Origin: an uncultured beta proteobacterium
GTDB lineage: Bacteria; Pseudomonadota; Gammaproteobacteria; Burkholderiales; Gallionellaceae
Assembly (NCBI GenBank): GCA_963750775.1
Contig: CAVVRT010000003.1
Location: 155,273 to 219,272, forward strand
Reading direction: 5' to 3'
Length of the DNA stretch: 64,000 bases
Translations under genes and position numbers: made by a program
Shown: piece after piece, positions 18,045-23,617 of the stretch
Position numbering within the stretch: position 1 is the first letter of the stretch
Layout: each line of letters starts with the position of its first letter
Notes under the pieces: generated by a model
The model's input: the letters and a program-made list of their open reading frames with translations, nothing else
The model's database searches: none
Told to the model about the DNA's origin: nothing

Positions 18045-18048
18045 CCCT

Positions 18049-18771
18049 ATGCGCACCCTCATCCTTGCCATTCAATTTTTAACCCGCTTGCCCACGCCGC
18101 AACTACGCAATTTTGACGCGGCAGAATTAACCCGCTGCGCACATTGGTTTCCCTTGGTGGGCTTACTCATTGGCGCATTTGTGGCGGCGGCATTGTGGCT
18201 GGGCAGCCGCATTGATCCCGCACTCGGCGCGCTGCTAGGCGTATTGGTTTGGGTGGGGATTACGGGCGCATTGCATTTGGATGGGCTGGCAGACATGAGC
18301 GACGCACTGGGTGCGGCGCATCGCGATAAAGATAGATTTTTAAGCGTACTGGCTGACCCGCATTTAGGCACGTTTGGCGTGGTCAGCGTGGCGATGCAAC
18401 TGCTCACCAAATTCGTGTTGCTGATGTTGCTCGCCAAGGGCGGACACTATCTTGCTATCGCGCTCATCCCCGCTTGGGCGCGTTGGGGAACGCTCATTTG
18501 GGCGCGCTTGCCGACGCTTAAAGCAGGCTTGGGCGAACGCTTCGGCTGGCAAATTTCAACCTCCACCATCACCCTGTGGGGCTTGCTGTTGTTGGCGGGC
18601 AGCGTCATCGCCCCCGCCTTGTGCGCAGCACCTTTACTGGTTTTGGCGTGGCGACAATTTTTATTGCGACGCATCGGTGGCATGACGGGCGATTTATTGG
18701 GGGCGGGCGTGGAAGTGCTGGAAAGTGCCGCGTTGTTACTGCTCTTAATCCCCTTTGCGCGCATGTTCTAA
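18049..18771 (+). CDS. cobS: Adenosylcobinamide-GDP ribazoletransferase (cobalamin synthase)
   Basis: AIQFLTRLP, TGALHLDGLADMSD, GGMTGDLLGA; ATG at 18049. Confidence 0.95.
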   Translation: MRTLILAIQFLTRLPTPQLRNFDAAELTRCAHWFPLVGLLIGAFVAAALWLGSRIDPALGALLGVLVWVGITGALHLDGLADMSDALGAAHRDKDRFLSVLADPHLGTFGVVSVAMQLLTKFVLLMLLAKGGHYLAIALIPAWARWGTLIWARLPTLKAGLGERFGWQISTSTITLWGLLLLAGSVIAPALCAAPLLVLAWRQFLLRRIGGMTGDLLGAGVEVLESAALLLLLIPFARMF

Positions 18772-18798
18772 CAGAGCCTTTCTGCTAAAGTGCGCGCC

Positions 18799-20574
18799 AT
18801 GAAAAATCTCACCAATACCCAGCTTTACTTACGTTTACTGTCCTACGTCAAACCTTACTGGCGCGTGTTCGCCGCTTCCATCGCTGGCACAGCGGTCGCT
18901 GCCGCCACCGAGCCGTTGTTGCCCGCTCTGCTCAAACCCATGCTGGACGGGACTTTCGTGCATAAAGACGCGTTCGTGATTCATTGGGCTCCGCTGATTA
19001 TTATTTTGATTTTCTTGGTGCGCGGCATTGCGGGCTTCGTTGCGACCTACGCGATTAACTGGGTGGGCAACAAAGTCGTGATGGATTTGCGCGGCGAAAT
19101 GTTCCGCAAATTGCTCACCCTGCCTACGCATTTTTACGACAACCACGCCACCGGTAATCTCATCTCCAAACTCACCTTCGATGTCACGCAAGTCACGGCT
19201 GCTGCGACTTCGGTGGTGACCGTCACCATCCGCGACTCCATCATTATTGTCGGGCTGTTAGGTTGGCTGATTTATTTGGATTGGAAACTCACATTGCTCG
19301 CGCTGGTGGTCACGCCCTTAGTCGCGGGGGTGATTTACACCATTAACAAACGCTTGCGCAATTCCAGCCGCGACTCGCAACGCGCCATGGGCAACATTAC
19401 CCAAGTGATAGAGGAAAGCGTTGCCGCGCATAAGGTCGTTAAATTATTCGGCGGGCAACGCTATGAACAGCAACGCTTTGAAGTCGAGACTAATGGGATG
19501 CGCCGCCAAGCCATGAAGCAAGCGGCGGCGGCGGCGGCGAACGTGCCGCTAGTGCAATTAGTCGCGGCGTTCGCGCTGGCAGTGGTGATTTATTTGGCAA
19601 CGCAACAAGCTAAAACCGACGAGACCACGGTGGGCGGATTTTTGTCGTTTGTCGCGGCGATGTTGATGTTGACCGCGCCGATTAAACGTCTCACCAGTGT
19701 CAGCGAACAAATGCAGCGCGGCCTTGCCGCCGCCGAAAGTGTGTTCGATTTAATCGACACAGCTGGCGAAATGGATAACGGCAAAGTCGCATTGGCGCGC
19801 GCGCGTGGCGAGTTGAATTTTGAGCAGTTAAATTTTGCCTATCAAAACGACGATGCACCCGCCAATGAACCTGTGCGCATGGCTTTGCAGGATATTTGTT
19901 TGAACGTGCCAGCAGGACAATCGGTGGCTTTAGTCGGTGCGTCGGGCAGCGGAAAAAGTACGCTGGCGAATCTTGTGCCGCGCTTTTATTTGCCCAGCAG
20001 CGGACGCATTACGCTAGACGGACACGACTTGAATGAGCTGACGCTCGCCAGCTTGCGCGCCAACATCGCGCTGGTCAGCCAAGAAGTGGTGCTGTTCAAC
20101 GATACCCTCGCCGCCAACATTGCTTACGGTCAAGAACGCGAAGTTTCCGAAGCAGAAATCATCGCCGCCGCCACTGCCGCGCACGCCATGGAATTTATCC
20201 GCGACTGGCCGCTGGGCTTGCAAACATTGGTCGGTGAGCGCGGTGTGAAGCTATCGGGCGGACAACGCCAGCGCATCGCCATCGCCCGCGCCATTCTAAA
20301 AAATGCGCCGATTTTGATTTTGGATGAAGCCACTTCCGCACTCGATTCCGCCTCCGAACGCCACGTCCAAGCCGCGCTCGAAACGCTGATGGAAGGTCGC
20401 ACCACGCTGGTCATTGCGCATCGCTTATCGACCATCGAAAAAGCAGATCGCATCGTGGTGATGCAAAAAGGTGTGATTGTGGAAGTCGGCACGCACCGCG
20501 AATTGCTTGCAAAAGCAGGCGTGTACGCGCAACTGCATCGCATTCAATTTGGCATGACGGAAGCCGCGCAATAA
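18799..20574 (+). CDS. msbA: Lipid A export ABC permease/ATPase
   Basis: RLLSYVKPY, TM domain, GASGSGKST, LSGGQRQRIAIARA, ILDEATSALD. Confidence 0.92.
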   Translation: MKNLTNTQLYLRLLSYVKPYWRVFAASIAGTAVAAATEPLLPALLKPMLDGTFVHKDAFVIHWAPLIIILIFLVRGIAGFVATYAINWVGNKVVMDLRGEMFRKLLTLPTHFYDNHATGNLISKLTFDVTQVTAAATSVVTVTIRDSIIIVGLLGWLIYLDWKLTLLALVVTPLVAGVIYTINKRLRNSSRDSQRAMGNITQVIEESVAAHKVVKLFGGQRYEQQRFEVETNGMRRQAMKQAAAAAANVPLVQLVAAFALAVVIYLATQQAKTDETTVGGFLSFVAAMLMLTAPIKRLTSVSEQMQRGLAAAESVFDLIDTAGEMDNGKVALARARGELNFEQLNFAYQNDDAPANEPVRMALQDICLNVPAGQSVALVGASGSGKSTLANLVPRFYLPSSGRITLDGHDLNELTLASLRANIALVSQEVVLFNDTLAANIAYGQEREVSEAEIIAAATAAHAMEFIRDWPLGLQTLVGERGVKLSGGQRQRIAIARAILKNAPILILDEATSALDSASERHVQAALETLMEGRTTLVIAHRLSTIEKADRIVVMQKGVIVEVGTHRELLAKAGVYAQLHRIQFGMTEAAQ

Positions 20575-20577
20575 CAG

Positions 20578-20814
20578 CTACTTTGCAGAGTGCTCGTACC
20601 AGCCTTGCGATGCGTTGGCGACCTTTACCACCAGCAACATCAACGGCACTTCAATCAACACGCCCACCACGGTCGCCAGAGCGGCACCCGATTCAAAGCC
20701 AAACGAACTAATCGCCGTGGCGACCGCAAGCTCAAAAAAATTGCTCGCGGCGATTAACGCGGACGGTGCGGCGACGCAATGTGCCACGCCCAGACGACGA
20801 TTCAGCCAGTATGC
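20578..20814 (-). pseudogene. acr3: Duplicated 3' fragment of acr3
   Basis: Reads [32 protein letters not shown]...WYEHSAK*; ~125 bp near-identical to full acr3 (about 21859-21983); in-frame TAG upstream. Confidence 0.9.
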
Positions 20815-20926
20815 CTAATTTTGTGACCTTGATTAACACTTCGTTGCGCACGTTTGTCACCCTGAAAAAATTATCAACCAGGTTAATTAAGCAGGGAACC
20901 TGTCACAGAATAGCTGCGTGTTAAAA

Positions 20927-20960
20927 CACTCAAATTCGACCCGCTATTTAGACCTTTACG
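20927..20960. repeat. Left 34-bp direct repeat flanking brnT-brnA
   Basis: CACTCAAATTCGACCCGCTATTTAGACCTTTACG; 31/34 identical to 21741..21774. Confidence 0.85.
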
Positions 20961-20983
20961 TTGCAAATATCTCCCTATTTATC

Positions 20984-21012
20984 TTTACAAGGTAGATAAT
21001 TATCTCCACAAT
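20984..21012 (+). promoter_or_regulatory. Putative sigma70 promoter and operator of brnTA
   Basis: TTTACA-17 nt-CACAAT with perfect palindrome AGATAATTATCT (20994-21005) between the boxes. Confidence 0.55.
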
Positions 21013-21019
21013 TAGAGTT

Positions 21020-21286
21020 GTGAGCTCGAACCTGACTTGGCATGAACCAAAACGACAACTAGCATTGACCGATAGAGGCTTGGACTTTGCCGATGCTGAA
21101 CACGTATTCGCCGAAACAGTGTTTGAGTTTGAGGATACCCGCCAAAACTACGGTGAATGCCGCATGATATGTTTCGGCTACTTGGCGGGTCGCTTGATGG
21201 TGGTTGGGTATGTTCAACGTGGCGAAAGCCGCCACATTTTTTCGATGAGGAAAGCCAATGAACTCGAAATTGCAAAATTTGGGTAG
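21020..21286 (+). CDS. brnT: BrnT family toxin
   Basis: LTWHEPKR...RGLDFADA, D.RQNYGECR, LMVVGYV.RG, HIFSMRKAN..E. Confidence 0.9.
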   Translation: MSSNLTWHEPKRQLALTDRGLDFADAEHVFAETVFEFEDTRQNYGECRMICFGYLAGRLMVVGYVQRGESRHIFSMRKANELEIAKFG

Positions 21287-21617
21287 CGACTTAACCCGTG
21301 TGGATGCGCATGTTATCCAATCCGATGAATACGACGAAATCCCAGAATTAACCGATGCCGATTTAGCGCGTGGTACTTGGAAAATCGCGGGTAAAGTCGT
21401 TAGCCGCACCGAAGGTAAAGCGGCATTCAGTGCCGCCTTGAAAAAGCACAAAATCAATCTCACGCTTGACCCTGATGTGTTGGCATTTTTCAAGCAACAA
21501 GCAGGCGGACGCGGATACCAAACGCTCATCAACGCGACCTTGCGCGAAGCCATGCGCGCCAAGTCGATTGAAGAAACGTTACGTCGCGTCATTCGCGAAG
21601 AGCTACACATCACGTAA
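21258..21617 (+). CDS. brnA: BrnA family antitoxin
   Basis: DEIPELTD, KHKINLTLDPDVLAFFK, GRGYQTLINATLR; overlaps brnT. Confidence 0.9.
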   Translation: MNSKLQNLGSDLTRVDAHVIQSDEYDEIPELTDADLARGTWKIAGKVVSRTEGKAAFSAALKKHKINLTLDPDVLAFFKQQAGGRGYQTLINATLREAMRAKSIEETLRRVIREELHIT

Positions 21618-21740
21618 CTGCGGTGCGCCAAATTGCTGGCGCATAAAATCAGCACGCTGTAGATTTTTTCACCAACAGATTCAAATCCGAAGTGCAAATT
21701 TTACAAACGAATTAGGTGGCGAGCTGCGAGAACATCGTGC

Positions 21741-21774
21741 CACTAAAATTCGACCCGCTATTTAGACTTTTTCG
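21741..21774. repeat. Right 34-bp direct repeat, overlapping the acr3 stop codon
   Basis: CACTAAAATTCGACCCGCTATTTAGACTTTTTCG. Confidence 0.85.
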
Positions 21775-22781
21775 TACCAAGCCCGCGACTGGTTCACGAC
21801 TTTGACCACCAGCAACATCACGGGGACTTCAATCAATACGCCGACTACTGTGGCTAAGGCGGCACCCGATTCAAAGCCAAACAAACTAATCGCCGTGGCG
21901 ACCGCAAGCTCAAAAAAATTGCTCGCGGCGATTAACGCGGACGGTGCGGCGACACAATGTGCCACGCCCAGACGACGATTCAAGCCATACGCCAAACTCG
22001 CATTGAACAGCACTTGCAGCAAAATCGGCACGGCGAGCAGCGCAATGACAACAGGCTGTTTGACGATGGCGTTGCCTTGCAAGGCAAACAATAAAACCAG
22101 CGTTAGCAATAGCGCGCTCATGGAAAATGGGGCGATTTTTTGCACGGCGTGATTAAAGTTTACTTCGCCTTTTGCCATTAAATAGCGGCGTAAAAATTGC
22201 GCGAGGATGACGGGAATGACGATGTAAAAAATCACCGAAAACAGCAGCGTCGCCCACGGCACGGCGATGCTGGCTAGACCTAGCAACAACGCCACCAGCG
22301 GCGCAAAAGCAAAAATCATAATCGCGTCATTAAGGGCGACTTGCGACAGGGTGAAATACGCATCGCCCTTCACCAGATTGCTCCACACAAACACCATCGC
22401 GGTACACGGTGCGGCGGCGAGCAAAATTAGTCCCGCGATATAACTGTCGAGTTGCTCGGCGGGCAAATAGGCCGCGAACAGATGGCGGATAAATAGCCAA
22501 GCTAACAACGCCATCGAAAACGGCTTGACCGCCCAGTTGACGAATAGCGTTACGACTATGCCGCGCAGATGTTTTTTGACTTGATGCAACGGGCCGAAGT
22601 CGATGCGCAACAGCATCGGAATAATCATCACCCACACCAGAATTCCGACGGGAAGGTTGACGTGCGCGATTTCTAAACTGGCGAGCGCGTGAAAAAATTC
22701 TGGCGAAAATTGTCCTAACAACACGCCGACAACGATGCACAAAAACACCCACACGGTGAGATAGCGTTCAAACAGATTCAT
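21762..22781 (-). CDS. acr3: ACR3 family arsenite efflux transporter
   Basis: [48 protein letters not shown]. Confidence 0.97.
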   Translation of the reverse strand: MNLFERYLTVWVFLCIVVGVLLGQFSPEFFHALASLEIAHVNLPVGILVWVMIIPMLLRIDFGPLHQVKKHLRGIVVTLFVNWAVKPFSMALLAWLFIRHLFAAYLPAEQLDSYIAGLILLAAAPCTAMVFVWSNLVKGDAYFTLSQVALNDAIMIFAFAPLVALLLGLASIAVPWATLLFSVIFYIVIPVILAQFLRRYLMAKGEVNFNHAVQKIAPFSMSALLLTLVLLFALQGNAIVKQPVVIALLAVPILLQVLFNASLAYGLNRRLGVAHCVAAPSALIAASNFFELAVATAISLFGFESGAALATVVGVLIEVPVMLLVVKVVNQSRAWYEKV

Positions 22782-22785
22782 CGCG

Positions 22786-23283
22786 TTAATCCTTTATCCG
22801 TCCGATTTCGGCGAGCTTTTCTTTCAACACCAGCTTGTCCAATTTCTCAAATGGCAACGCCATAAAAAGCTGGATGCGTCGAGCGAGTTGTTCAGCAGCT
22901 TTATTGAAGGCGGCACGGCGCGCATCATCACCTTCGATATGTGCAGGATCGGGAATCCCCCAGTGCGCAGTGGCAGGTTTGCCTAACCACAAGGGGCACG
23001 CTTCACCCGCCGCGTTGTCGCACACGGTGAAAATAAAATCGAATTGCGGCGCATCGGCAAGCGCGAATTCGTCCCAGCTTTTACTGCGCAATCCTTCGAG
23101 CGAGTGACCATGCGCTTGCAACCATTCAATTGCGCCGGGATTGACCTTGCCCGCTGGTTTGCTGCCCGCGCTATAGGCTTTGAATTTGCCTTTTCCTAAA
23201 GTGTTAAACAACACTTCACCCAAGATGCTGCGGGCCGAATTGCCCGTGCAAAGAATCAATACGGTGTAGATTTTTTCGTTCAT
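22786..23283 (-). CDS. arsC: Arsenate reductase (LMW-PTP fold)
   Basis: LCTGNSARS, TVCDNAAGEACP, HWGIPDP; ATG at 23283. Confidence 0.93.
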   Translation of the reverse strand: MNEKIYTVLILCTGNSARSILGEVLFNTLGKGKFKAYSAGSKPAGKVNPGAIEWLQAHGHSLEGLRSKSWDEFALADAPQFDFIFTVCDNAAGEACPLWLGKPATAHWGIPDPAHIEGDDARRAAFNKAAEQLARRIQLFMALPFEKLDKLVLKEKLAEIGRIKD

Positions 23284-23302
23284 TACTTTTCCTTTTCTAA
23301 AA

Positions 23303-23617
23303 TTAACATTGCTTATTTTCAAGCTCACACGCTGTGCCTGCGCAGCAGTTTTCGGTGAGGTAAGCCAGCATCGTATTCATCGCAGTAAAGTTCGCCGCGT
23401 AATAGACGAAACGCCCGTCTTGGCGTTGGCTAATCAGCCCCGCGTGCGTGAGTGTTTTGACATGAAAAGACAAATTAGCGGGCGACACTTTGAGCTTCTC
23501 AGCAATCTGTCCCGCCGCCATACCGTCCACACCATGCACTACTAACAGCCGGAAAATGGCTAAACGGGTGGGCTGCGCCAGAGCGGATAAAGCTTTTACG
23601 ACTTGGGCTGATTTCAT
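23303..23617 (-). CDS. arsR: ArsR/SmtB repressor with C-terminal ENCC..C arsenite site
   Basis: ALAQPTRLAIFRLL, LSFH, ENCCAGTAC. Confidence 0.93.
   Translation of the reverse strand: MKSAQVVKALSALAQPTRLAIFRLLVVHGVDGMAAGQIAEKLKVSPANLSFHVKTLTHAGLISQRQDGRFVYYAANFTAMNTMLAYLTENCCAGTACELENKQC

Follow-up and report, generated by a model that had tools for sequence, protein, structure and literature searches.

A brnTA islet bracketed by a duplicated acr3 gene end in Gallionella: probable displacement of a gene end by homologous recombination

Integrase-driven elements are classically recognized by a duplicated gene 3′ end with a replaced tail. Cis-mobilizable elements (CIMEs) derive from integrase-bearing relatives with a fixed attachment (att) core, and depend on them. 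Gene ends are also replaced at rhs loci, for which a displacement model has been put forward: the acquired gene end arrives by way of an episomal circle that carries a fragment of the core together with a new tip (PMC2935791, 2009). Related arrays of orphan gene ends are found in loci of contact-dependent inhibition (CDI) and in effector–immunity loci of type VI secretion systems (T6SS) (PMC5361080). Insertion with long target duplication has been described for restriction–modification gene units (Nobusato et al. 2000, as cited in Furuta, Abe and Kobayashi 2010, PMC2853133). In the cases presented in that account, the direct repeats are longer than 30 bp and reach about 420 bp, and a life cycle of insertion, amplification via the repeats, and release is proposed (PMC2853133). 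Here, we describe a locus in a 64,000-nucleotide stretch of DNA from an uncultured bacterium of the family Gallionellaceae (assembly GCA_963750775.1, contig CAVVRT010000003.1, positions 155,273–219,272), referred to as the window. A 1178-bp unit with the toxin–antitoxin genes brnTA, the islet, lies there between an intact acr3 gene, which encodes an arsenite efflux transporter, and a second copy of the acr3 3′ end. The locus is probably the product of gene-end displacement, or insertion with long target duplication, by homologous recombination.

The islet resembles the elements of the rhs displacement model in that it brings an alternative gene end together with linked small genes and replaces the incumbent end. 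The incumbent end of acr3 likewise persists downstream as an intact and silent sequence that retains a conserved core, here called block B, and no integrase is present. The attached and displaced ends share this core and are of different origin, the nearest sequences being locus L106 for the attached tail (c′) and locus L083 for the displaced tail (C). A nested second repeat (D2) is a sign of more than one round. By contrast with rhs loci, the target is an arsenite efflux transporter instead of a polymorphic toxin, the new tail brings a conservative allele of the same sequence and no new toxic domain, and the passenger is a type II toxin–antitoxin pair and not an immunity gene. The new tip confers no apparent selective benefit.

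As in the described cases of long target duplication, the islet is absent from the site in a relative, the target is single-copy there, the repeats are longer than 30 bp, and there is no mobility gene. The cargo is likewise of the addiction type, but it consists of BrnT and BrnA instead of a restriction–modification unit, so that the likeness is one of mechanism and addiction logic. The repeats at the islet run into diverged homologous sequence (c′ versus C), which means that a foreign allele of the target came along; the tables of PMC2853133 give repeat identities only. The kind of event is already known from the displacement of rhs, CDI, and T6SS gene ends and from restriction–modification units with long target duplications. 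New features are the target, an arsenite transporter presumed to function as a mosaic, and the toxin–antitoxin cargo, which comes from a pool associated with prophages. Equally new are the second, nested repeat with its remnant of arsC and the population record of empty, filled, and mosaic states.

Two mosaic copies of the acr3 end

The fragment of acr3 (20578–20816, minus strand) consists of 78 codons and a stop, 79 codons in total. Its stop codon is separated by 3 nt from that of the left neighbor msbA, and an identical 3-nt junction is found in L083, a relative in which the site is empty. The intact acr3 (21762–22781, minus strand) encodes 339 amino acids, matches the Pfam family SBF (PF01758, E = 8e-32), and has homologues named ACR3 family arsenite efflux transporter. 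The two copies form the direct repeat D1 (20594–20818 and 21772–21996), which is 225 nt long, 87% identical, and has a spacing of 1178. The mismatches between the copies are distributed unevenly, with 6 of 14 nt in the a-block, 2 of 122 nt in the central block B, and 28 of 97 nt in the tail. The rates in block B and in the tail differ with p = 2e-9 (Fisher test); block B is 98% identical between the copies, and tails C and c′ are 71% identical. An initial annotation of the window had described the 79-codon fragment abutting msbA, a central block with two mismatches, diverged flanks, and no recombinase, and every detail of this description is confirmed. A recombinase or mobility gene was found neither in the insert, nor in about 17 kb annotated around it, nor among 20 further open reading frames (ORFs) of the window that were tested.

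The substitutions that separate the two tails are mostly silent. When synonymous and non-synonymous differences of the two copies are compared, the tails have a proportion of synonymous differences (pS) of 0.73 and of non-synonymous differences (pN) of 0.09, and block B has a pS of 0.03. The tails are therefore two alleles that diverged while functional, under purifying selection. In distant acr3 genes, the identity within block B is only about 77%. Therefore, the near-identity of the two copies of B results from shared descent or conversion and not from constraint, and the idea that B is an unusually conserved sequence was rejected. Block B of L083 is 96.7% identical to both copies in the window, which was considered as a sign of a special treatment of B; this was also rejected, because msbA is at the same level.

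The origin of each part becomes apparent when the intact copy, the fragment, L083, and L106 are aligned with one another. The intact gene is L083-like throughout its 5′ part (21986–22781; 88.5% identical to L083), which is of the AYG type, and through block B (21860–21985; 97% identical to L083 and 82% to L106). It then continues into an L106-like tail c′ (21762–21859), which is 87–89% identical to L106 and 70–74% to L083. The C-terminal region accordingly reads ...LAYGLNRRLG...VNQSRAWYEKV, followed by the stop. The fragment has the opposite composition. After an in-frame stop, its first 13–14 nt (a′, 20803–20816) encode the foreign-type AYW and match L106 and L108 at 86–93%, not the native AYG. 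Block B of the fragment (approximately 20681–20802) is 97% identical to L083, and the tail C (20578 to approximately 20680) is 88–90% identical to L083 and 71% to the tail of the intact copy. The frame of the fragment runs from the stop through AYWLNRRLG... to the native-type end ...WYEHSAK with no frameshift and no internal stop, and no promoter-like site was found for the fragment (20578–20816). In this alignment, the working acr3 consists of a native 5′ part, block B, and a foreign tail, and the orphan of foreign a′, block B, and a native tail; the two are reciprocal chimeras. The proposal of the initial annotation that a different acr3 3′ allele rebuilt a chimeric acr3 and displaced the old end agrees with this composition. 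The window Acr3 contains the motifs AAPCTAMV and IEVP, which have a functional role in ACR3 transporters.

The foreign tail has counterparts in other Gallionella. A donor search was performed with a query in which the C-terminal part of L106 was grafted onto the N-terminal part of the window Acr3. It identified two Gallionella Acr3 proteins of 340 amino acids, P0254 and P0255, which are 99% and 94% identical to the query over the L106 C-terminal part. Both carry AYW and ...ANQSRDWYEK/Q.., and they end in ...ANQSRDWYEKNQ (P0254, WYEKNQ) or ...WYEQAI (P0255). AYW is the usual state in Gallionella Acr3, and AYG with an HSAK-type tail marks the clade of the window and L083. The c′-type tail is therefore a natural allele of another Gallionella group.

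Filled, empty, and mosaic sites

The filled structure, from msbA through the fragment and brnTA to acr3, is present on single contigs in three further assemblies, L081, L082, and L092, which are 99.98%, 98.5%, and 97.7% identical to the window and encode exactly the same Acr3 and BrnA proteins. The islet also occurs in Logan contigs of about 20 metagenome runs from 8 studies of drinking-water filters, biofilters, and sediment; all runs were examined as assembler contigs. The Logan contigs are interrupted where the repeat begins and ends, and the depth of the shared repeat unitig is raised. An assembly artefact is excluded, and the duplication, the reality of which the initial annotation had left to be checked, is supported by the three assemblies and by these runs.

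The relative with an uninterrupted msbA–acr3(...HSAK) arrangement that the initial annotation had predicted exists in two independent assemblies, L083 and L084, on contigs of 91 kb and 85 kb. In both, 3 nt separate msbA from an uninterrupted acr3 of 341 amino acids that ends in ...WYEHSAK. Their DNA is continuous with positions 18046–20818 of the window and, starting from the same acr3 bases, with 21772–23277, so that 7796–8020 of L083 aligns to both 20594–20818 and 21772–21996. The msbA gene of this lineage is about 94% identical in DNA to that of the window. The ancestral arrangement is msbA, 3 nt, and acr3 ending in ...WYEHSAK. Empty sites also occur within the species of the window. In run X9, the depth is 62.9 for the contig with the msbA end and tail C, 50 for a block B unitig with a private single-nucleotide polymorphism, 54.1 for the contig with the 5′ part of acr3 (A), and 17.5 for the islet, and the unitigs abut by 30 nt, which is the exact overlap used by the assembler. 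The depths and adjacency of the unitigs therefore indicate that most genomes in this run read C-B-A, which is the empty site. Run X16 contains a 742-nt contig with the empty-site joint, which skips 1178; its coverage is 5–8×, and a collapse across the repeat could mimic such a joint.

A second, more distant lineage carries the same insertion. Loci L106 (from ENA) and L108 (from Logan, 17 samples) are 88–90% identical to the window over 20713–22195, and they agree with it in the order of parts and in the junction between a′ and the adjoining segment Y. The shared a′/Y junction in a lineage diverged by about 10% therefore indicates a single origin and an event older than the window strain. The event did not take place in the window strain itself, and the reading of the initial annotation needs amendment here. 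In the fragment of L108, block B changes its allele type mid-block, and a crossover inside B would give such a pattern.

Within the species of the window, the islet's unique part hardly varies, and the flanks differ by 2–8%. L092 differs from the window at 2 of 1207 islet sites and at 62 of 1577 flank sites (p = 1e-13). L082 has 45 differences in the msbA part and 2 in the following 2.1 kb. In L092 and several runs, block B of the fragment has 8 differences from that of the window, all of them synonymous; the fragment protein of L092 differs at one residue, S versus L. The comparison shows a young islet haplotype in freely recombining flanks, and the near-identity of the two copies of B in the window would be a strain-level conversion.

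The 3′ half of msbA (19347–20574) is a mosaic among strains. The differences, which amount to 3.7% in L082 and 8% over the last 192 nt in L092, are arranged in patches, and the next 2 kb are near-identical. This pattern indicates that homologous exchange around the locus is frequent.

The msbA gene (18790–20574, plus strand) encodes a lipid A export ABC transporter with the Pfam domains ABC_membrane and ABC_tran; its homologues are named MsbA of Gallionella, which identifies the organism as Gallionella. On the other side, acr3 belongs to an ars operon with the order arsR-arsC-acr3. Resident arsC (22786–23328, minus strand; Pfam LMWPc) and arsR (23303–23617, minus strand; Pfam HTH_20/HTH_5) are located upstream of acr3. 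In the sister lineage, a second large indel is present: L083 9302–12800 holds about 3.5 kb of extra DNA between arsC and arsR relative to window positions 23277–23335. This segment contains genes for a CDF transporter, a thioredoxin-like protein, a YgaP-like protein, one unknown protein, ArsP, and an ECF sigma factor. In the Gallionella relatives L085–L089, the MsbA of which is 87–88% identical, msbA is followed by genes for AhpC, CHASE2, SH3-domain, and M48 peptidase proteins instead of the ars operon, and L085 has an LRR-kinase gene at the post-msbA position as well. Genes for an LRR kinase and an M48 peptidase are located 26–33 kb away in the window. The difference in layout suggests a larger rearrangement or insertion.

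Composition of the insert

The initial annotation had described the insert as an acr3 end plus brnTA; it is more composite than that. Read along acr3, the 1178-bp unit comprises tail c′, a short intergenic segment, about the first 17 codons of arsC, brnT-brnA, the second copy of D2, the 110-nt segment Y, and the 13-nt a′. Its G+C content is 46.8%, compared to 52.8% for the window. Segment Y (20817–20926) has a G+C content of 39% and is joined to a′ at 20816/20817; the junction is identical in L108. Y has no homologue in any fetched locus, plasmid, or phage, and contains no convincing ORF.

Next to Y is the left copy of the nested direct repeat D2 (20927–20966), which is 40 nt long and has a perfect 22-nt core, AAATTCGACCCGCTATTTAGAC, at 20932–20953. 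The right copy occupies 21741–21780, with the core at 21746–21767. The copies are 814 apart and bracket brnTA and the arsC remnant; two core matches were found, compared to none expected by chance. In L108, the core has 3 mismatches, all in the left copy. The working acr3 takes its last codon (V) and its stop from the core of the right copy. The right end of this core (21767) may mark a junction, as the acr3 genes with the islet end in WYEKV and P0254, the closest islet-free allele, ends in WYEKNQ, sequences that were compared at the protein level only. D2 was also considered as a tRNA-like site or an integron attC-like site and rejected, because it has no complementary stem and no family match. 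An Rfam scan returned nothing above noise, and no exact match of the D2 core is present in JGI metagenome contigs or viral contigs.

The remaining parts of the insert point to another ars operon. The segment at 21619–21670 (minus strand; EKIYSVLILCASNLAHR) is a 5′ remnant of a foreign arsC that shares 77% identity, over 52 nt, with the start of resident arsC (23226–23277). The remnant is cut off at the brnA stop, and the copy in L106 still reads LILCTGNSAR, the P-loop of ArsC. Intergenic DNA (21671–21740) connects the foreign acr3 tail to the remnant and is colinear, at 93–95% identity, in L106 and L108 only. Tail c′, the 85-nt spacer, and the arsC remnant therefore form a piece of a foreign operon with acr3 followed by arsC, unlike the resident arsR-arsC-acr3. 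The spacer region (21640–21767) is about 97% identical between the lineages and was considered as a conserved non-coding element; this was rejected, because the adjoining 105 nt of brnA are identical too. These 105 nt of brnA coding sequence (21507–21611) are identical in the lineage diverged by 10%, and synonymous differences elsewhere in the pair amount to 21–40%. The segment looks like a tract of recent exchange between two versions of the islet.

BrnTA is a type II toxin–antitoxin system that was first described in Brucella abortus. The module in the islet (20967–21617, plus strand) is composed of a promoter/operator region and two genes. A predicted −35/−10-like promoter site (20984–21012) precedes brnT (21020–21286; PF04365, E = 1e-18, 67.5 bits with a cut-off of 34.5), which overlaps by 29 nt (21258–21286) with brnA (21258–21617; PF14384, E = 9e-15, 55.2 bits with a cut-off of 26.1). 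Both domains are full-length, and these are the only Pfam matches between the acr3 copies; the remaining ORFs are antisense overlaps. The start codon of brnT at 21020 is GTG in the window and ATG (G>A) in L082, L092, and 11 of 13 runs; X1 is unchanged, and X19 is not listed. The pN/pS ratio of brnTA is 0.11–0.15 between lineages (0.14 in comparison with L108), which corresponds to purifying selection. The islet is thus similar to the type II system in having full-length BrnT and BrnA domains, the toxin gene first, overlapping genes, a promoter-like site of its own, and purifying selection. What distinguishes its subfamily is its occurrence as a portable unit of a promoter and two genes in prophages and in diverse chromosomal sites of Gallionella-like bacteria.

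Relatives of brnTA with a DNA identity of 76–86% are present in eight other fetched loci (L100, L101, L102, L103, L104, L107, L110, and L111). In L100 and L107, they are located in prophage regions beside terminase and Rha genes, in L101 between pgi and an ABC transporter gene, and in L103 near a RAMP gene. The homology starts at 20966–21029 and ends at 21604–21610 in all eight loci, and thus covers both genes and, in several loci, also the promoter/operator; for relatives in six other contexts, the start falls within 20966–20994. The brnTA module is mobile on its own, the homology being confined to promoter and genes in every case. The closest relatives (L107 5769–8506 and L100 4739–5530) lie between the small-terminase side and a Rha-family gene and are followed by a conserved ORF of 55 amino acids; in L107, another BrnT-like gene is found 2 kb beyond. 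A comparison of the islet with phage records yielded no match and one with plasmids only a single weak match of brnT; no relatives of BrnA were found in IMG/VR.

Route of entry and rival explanations

The favored reading of the locus is that the unit entered by host homologous recombination, mediated by RecA, within the block B of about 125 bp. The simplest route would be one crossover with a circular or permuted molecule carrying a 5′-truncated end of acr3, as in the model put forward for C-terminal displacement at rhs loci (PMC2935791); alternatively, one homologous end could have been combined with one illegitimate join. The first entry would have taken place in another or an ancestral Gallionella lineage, from which the structure could have spread between lineages and strains via its homologous flanks. 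Gap repair, later gene conversion, or recombination with empty-site alleles would have turned both copies of B in the window to the native type. Recombination between the two copies of B would delete the unit and yield an empty site and a 1178-bp circle. The islet BrnT toxin and the labile antitoxin BrnA would penalize loss of the islet as a putative addiction module, and such stabilization would account for a cargo of this kind.

That the intermediate was a circle is plausible, though unproven. In run X20, the islet is present at 100% identity and the flanks are diverged. A 629-nt contig from this run, with a coverage of about 7×, connects 21774–21883 to 20706–21224 and thereby goes back 1178; the shorter side measures 110 nt, 70 nt are shared, and the repeat is longer than the assembler word of 31. 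The permuted joint reads c′-B-a′, as expected of a circle or tandem array. No contig with a C-B or B-A junction was found in this run at its depth of 5–8×, at which there are gaps elsewhere too. The permuted contig is a lead, not evidence. The initial annotation had proposed single-crossover integration of a small circle: homologous entry within B is the favored part of this proposal, one crossover at a single point cannot alone give two native-type copies of B, and the circle has the X20 contig as its lead.

Several observations weigh against homologous entry in block B as the complete account of the locus. A one-point crossover would not leave both copies of B native-type, and further steps have to be supposed. 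Over its first 37 nt, c′ is about as far from L106 as from L083, which suggests that the true donor of c′ is not among the sequences compared. Homologous entry does not account for the origin of Y or for the role of the nested perfect 22-nt repeat around brnTA; D2 could stem from a short-homology crossover or serve an unknown recombinase as its site. Finally, the 70–90 nt of B that are identical exceed the assembler word of 31, and loss of two edges of the assembly graph could create the contigs of X20 and X16 without a circle.

Two repeats that face the same way at a distance of 1178 bp could come from a tandem duplication of the acr3 3′ end in place, followed by decay of one copy and a separate insertion of brnTA. 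However, the tails differ at 73% of synonymous and 9% of non-synonymous sites, compared to 3% of synonymous sites in B. The silent fragment has neither a frameshift nor an internal stop, and it is the fragment whose tail matches the relative, at 88–90%, and the working gene whose tail is foreign. The divergence of the tails, together with the native tail being held by the silent copy, therefore excludes plain tandem duplication with decay, which the initial annotation had named as one outcome that would overturn its reading, and leaves this explanation with a negligible probability. The duplicated gene 3′ end with a substituted tail would also be the hallmark of an integrase-driven island. Here, a larger element with a tyrosine recombinase and a replacement end in its attP would have inserted site-specifically at the acr3 3′ end, an internal deletion would have left brnTA between attL and attR in the manner of a CIME, and an integrase acting in trans might still move the remnant. 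Toxin–antitoxin pairs are often located at island edges, the perfect 22-nt direct repeat around brnTA resembles an att core, and the islet is, like CIMEs and other 3′-end integrative elements, small, integrase-free, bracketed by gene-end repeats, and equipped with a replacement end. However, the searches of the insert, the surrounding 17 kb, and the 20 other ORFs revealed no integrase. Of 80 other acr3 loci, taken from species-representative genomes, none shows a second tail of acr3, an element at the site, or a homologue of Y, the spacer, or brnTA. The lineage diverged by 10% has the same minimal islet and no larger element, and the D2 core is without a match in the metagenome and viral contigs. 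The switch points vary, being mid-B in L108 and at the edges of B in the window, and L092 has a different fragment B, which would not be the case with a fixed core. Unlike CIMEs, the islet has no integrase-bearing relative and no fixed crossover point among the fetched loci, and its origin from an integrase-driven island is quite unlikely.

A closer competitor of homologous entry by a circular molecule is homology-facilitated illegitimate recombination of linear Gallionella DNA. One end would have recombined in block B, and the Y end would have been joined just upstream of B, which would duplicate B; a′ would be native to the lineage of the event, and later recombination in the flanks would have passed the structure on. 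AYW is common in Gallionella Acr3 and is present in the intact copy (L106) and in the fragment (L108) of the second lineage, the mosaic flanks indicate frequent homologous exchange in the species, and the mechanism has been proposed for the sequential displacement of T6SS effector genes (PMC5361080). By contrast, one-ended integration normally causes recipient DNA to be replaced or lost, not 125–240 bp of it to be duplicated. The mid-block allele change in the fragment of L108 is more readily reconciled with a crossover between two different B sequences than with an illegitimate join at 20816/20817, and the permuted contig of X20, if real, favors a circular or tandem form. Linear entry is unlikely on balance, although one-ended integration and the circle model are not separable on present data. 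A further, rather doubtful possibility extends homologous entry in B to continued movement: the 1178-bp unit may be a mobile element without a recombinase, which moves in cycles between the chromosomes of Gallionella populations. It would be excised and re-integrated by RecA via the acr3 block B of about 125 bp, depart in circular form or multiply in tandem, be transferred by transformation or transduction, and be held by BrnTA.

The entry of small toxin–antitoxin cassettes into chromosomes without a mobility gene is poorly documented. The acr3 locus provides an unusually complete natural series: the site is empty in a sister lineage and also within the species, and filled in several strains and a second lineage. 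The series further includes the reciprocal chimeras, from which the places of exchange can be read, an arsC remnant from the donor context, and possible products of excision or amplification. For annotation, an orphan gene tail beside a toxin–antitoxin pair is to be read as a recombination scar, not as an independent pseudogene or as proof of a lost integrase. If the islet entered Gallionella by homologous recombination in block B, gene-end displacement would reach an ordinary resistance transporter, and not only polymorphic toxin genes and restriction–modification units.

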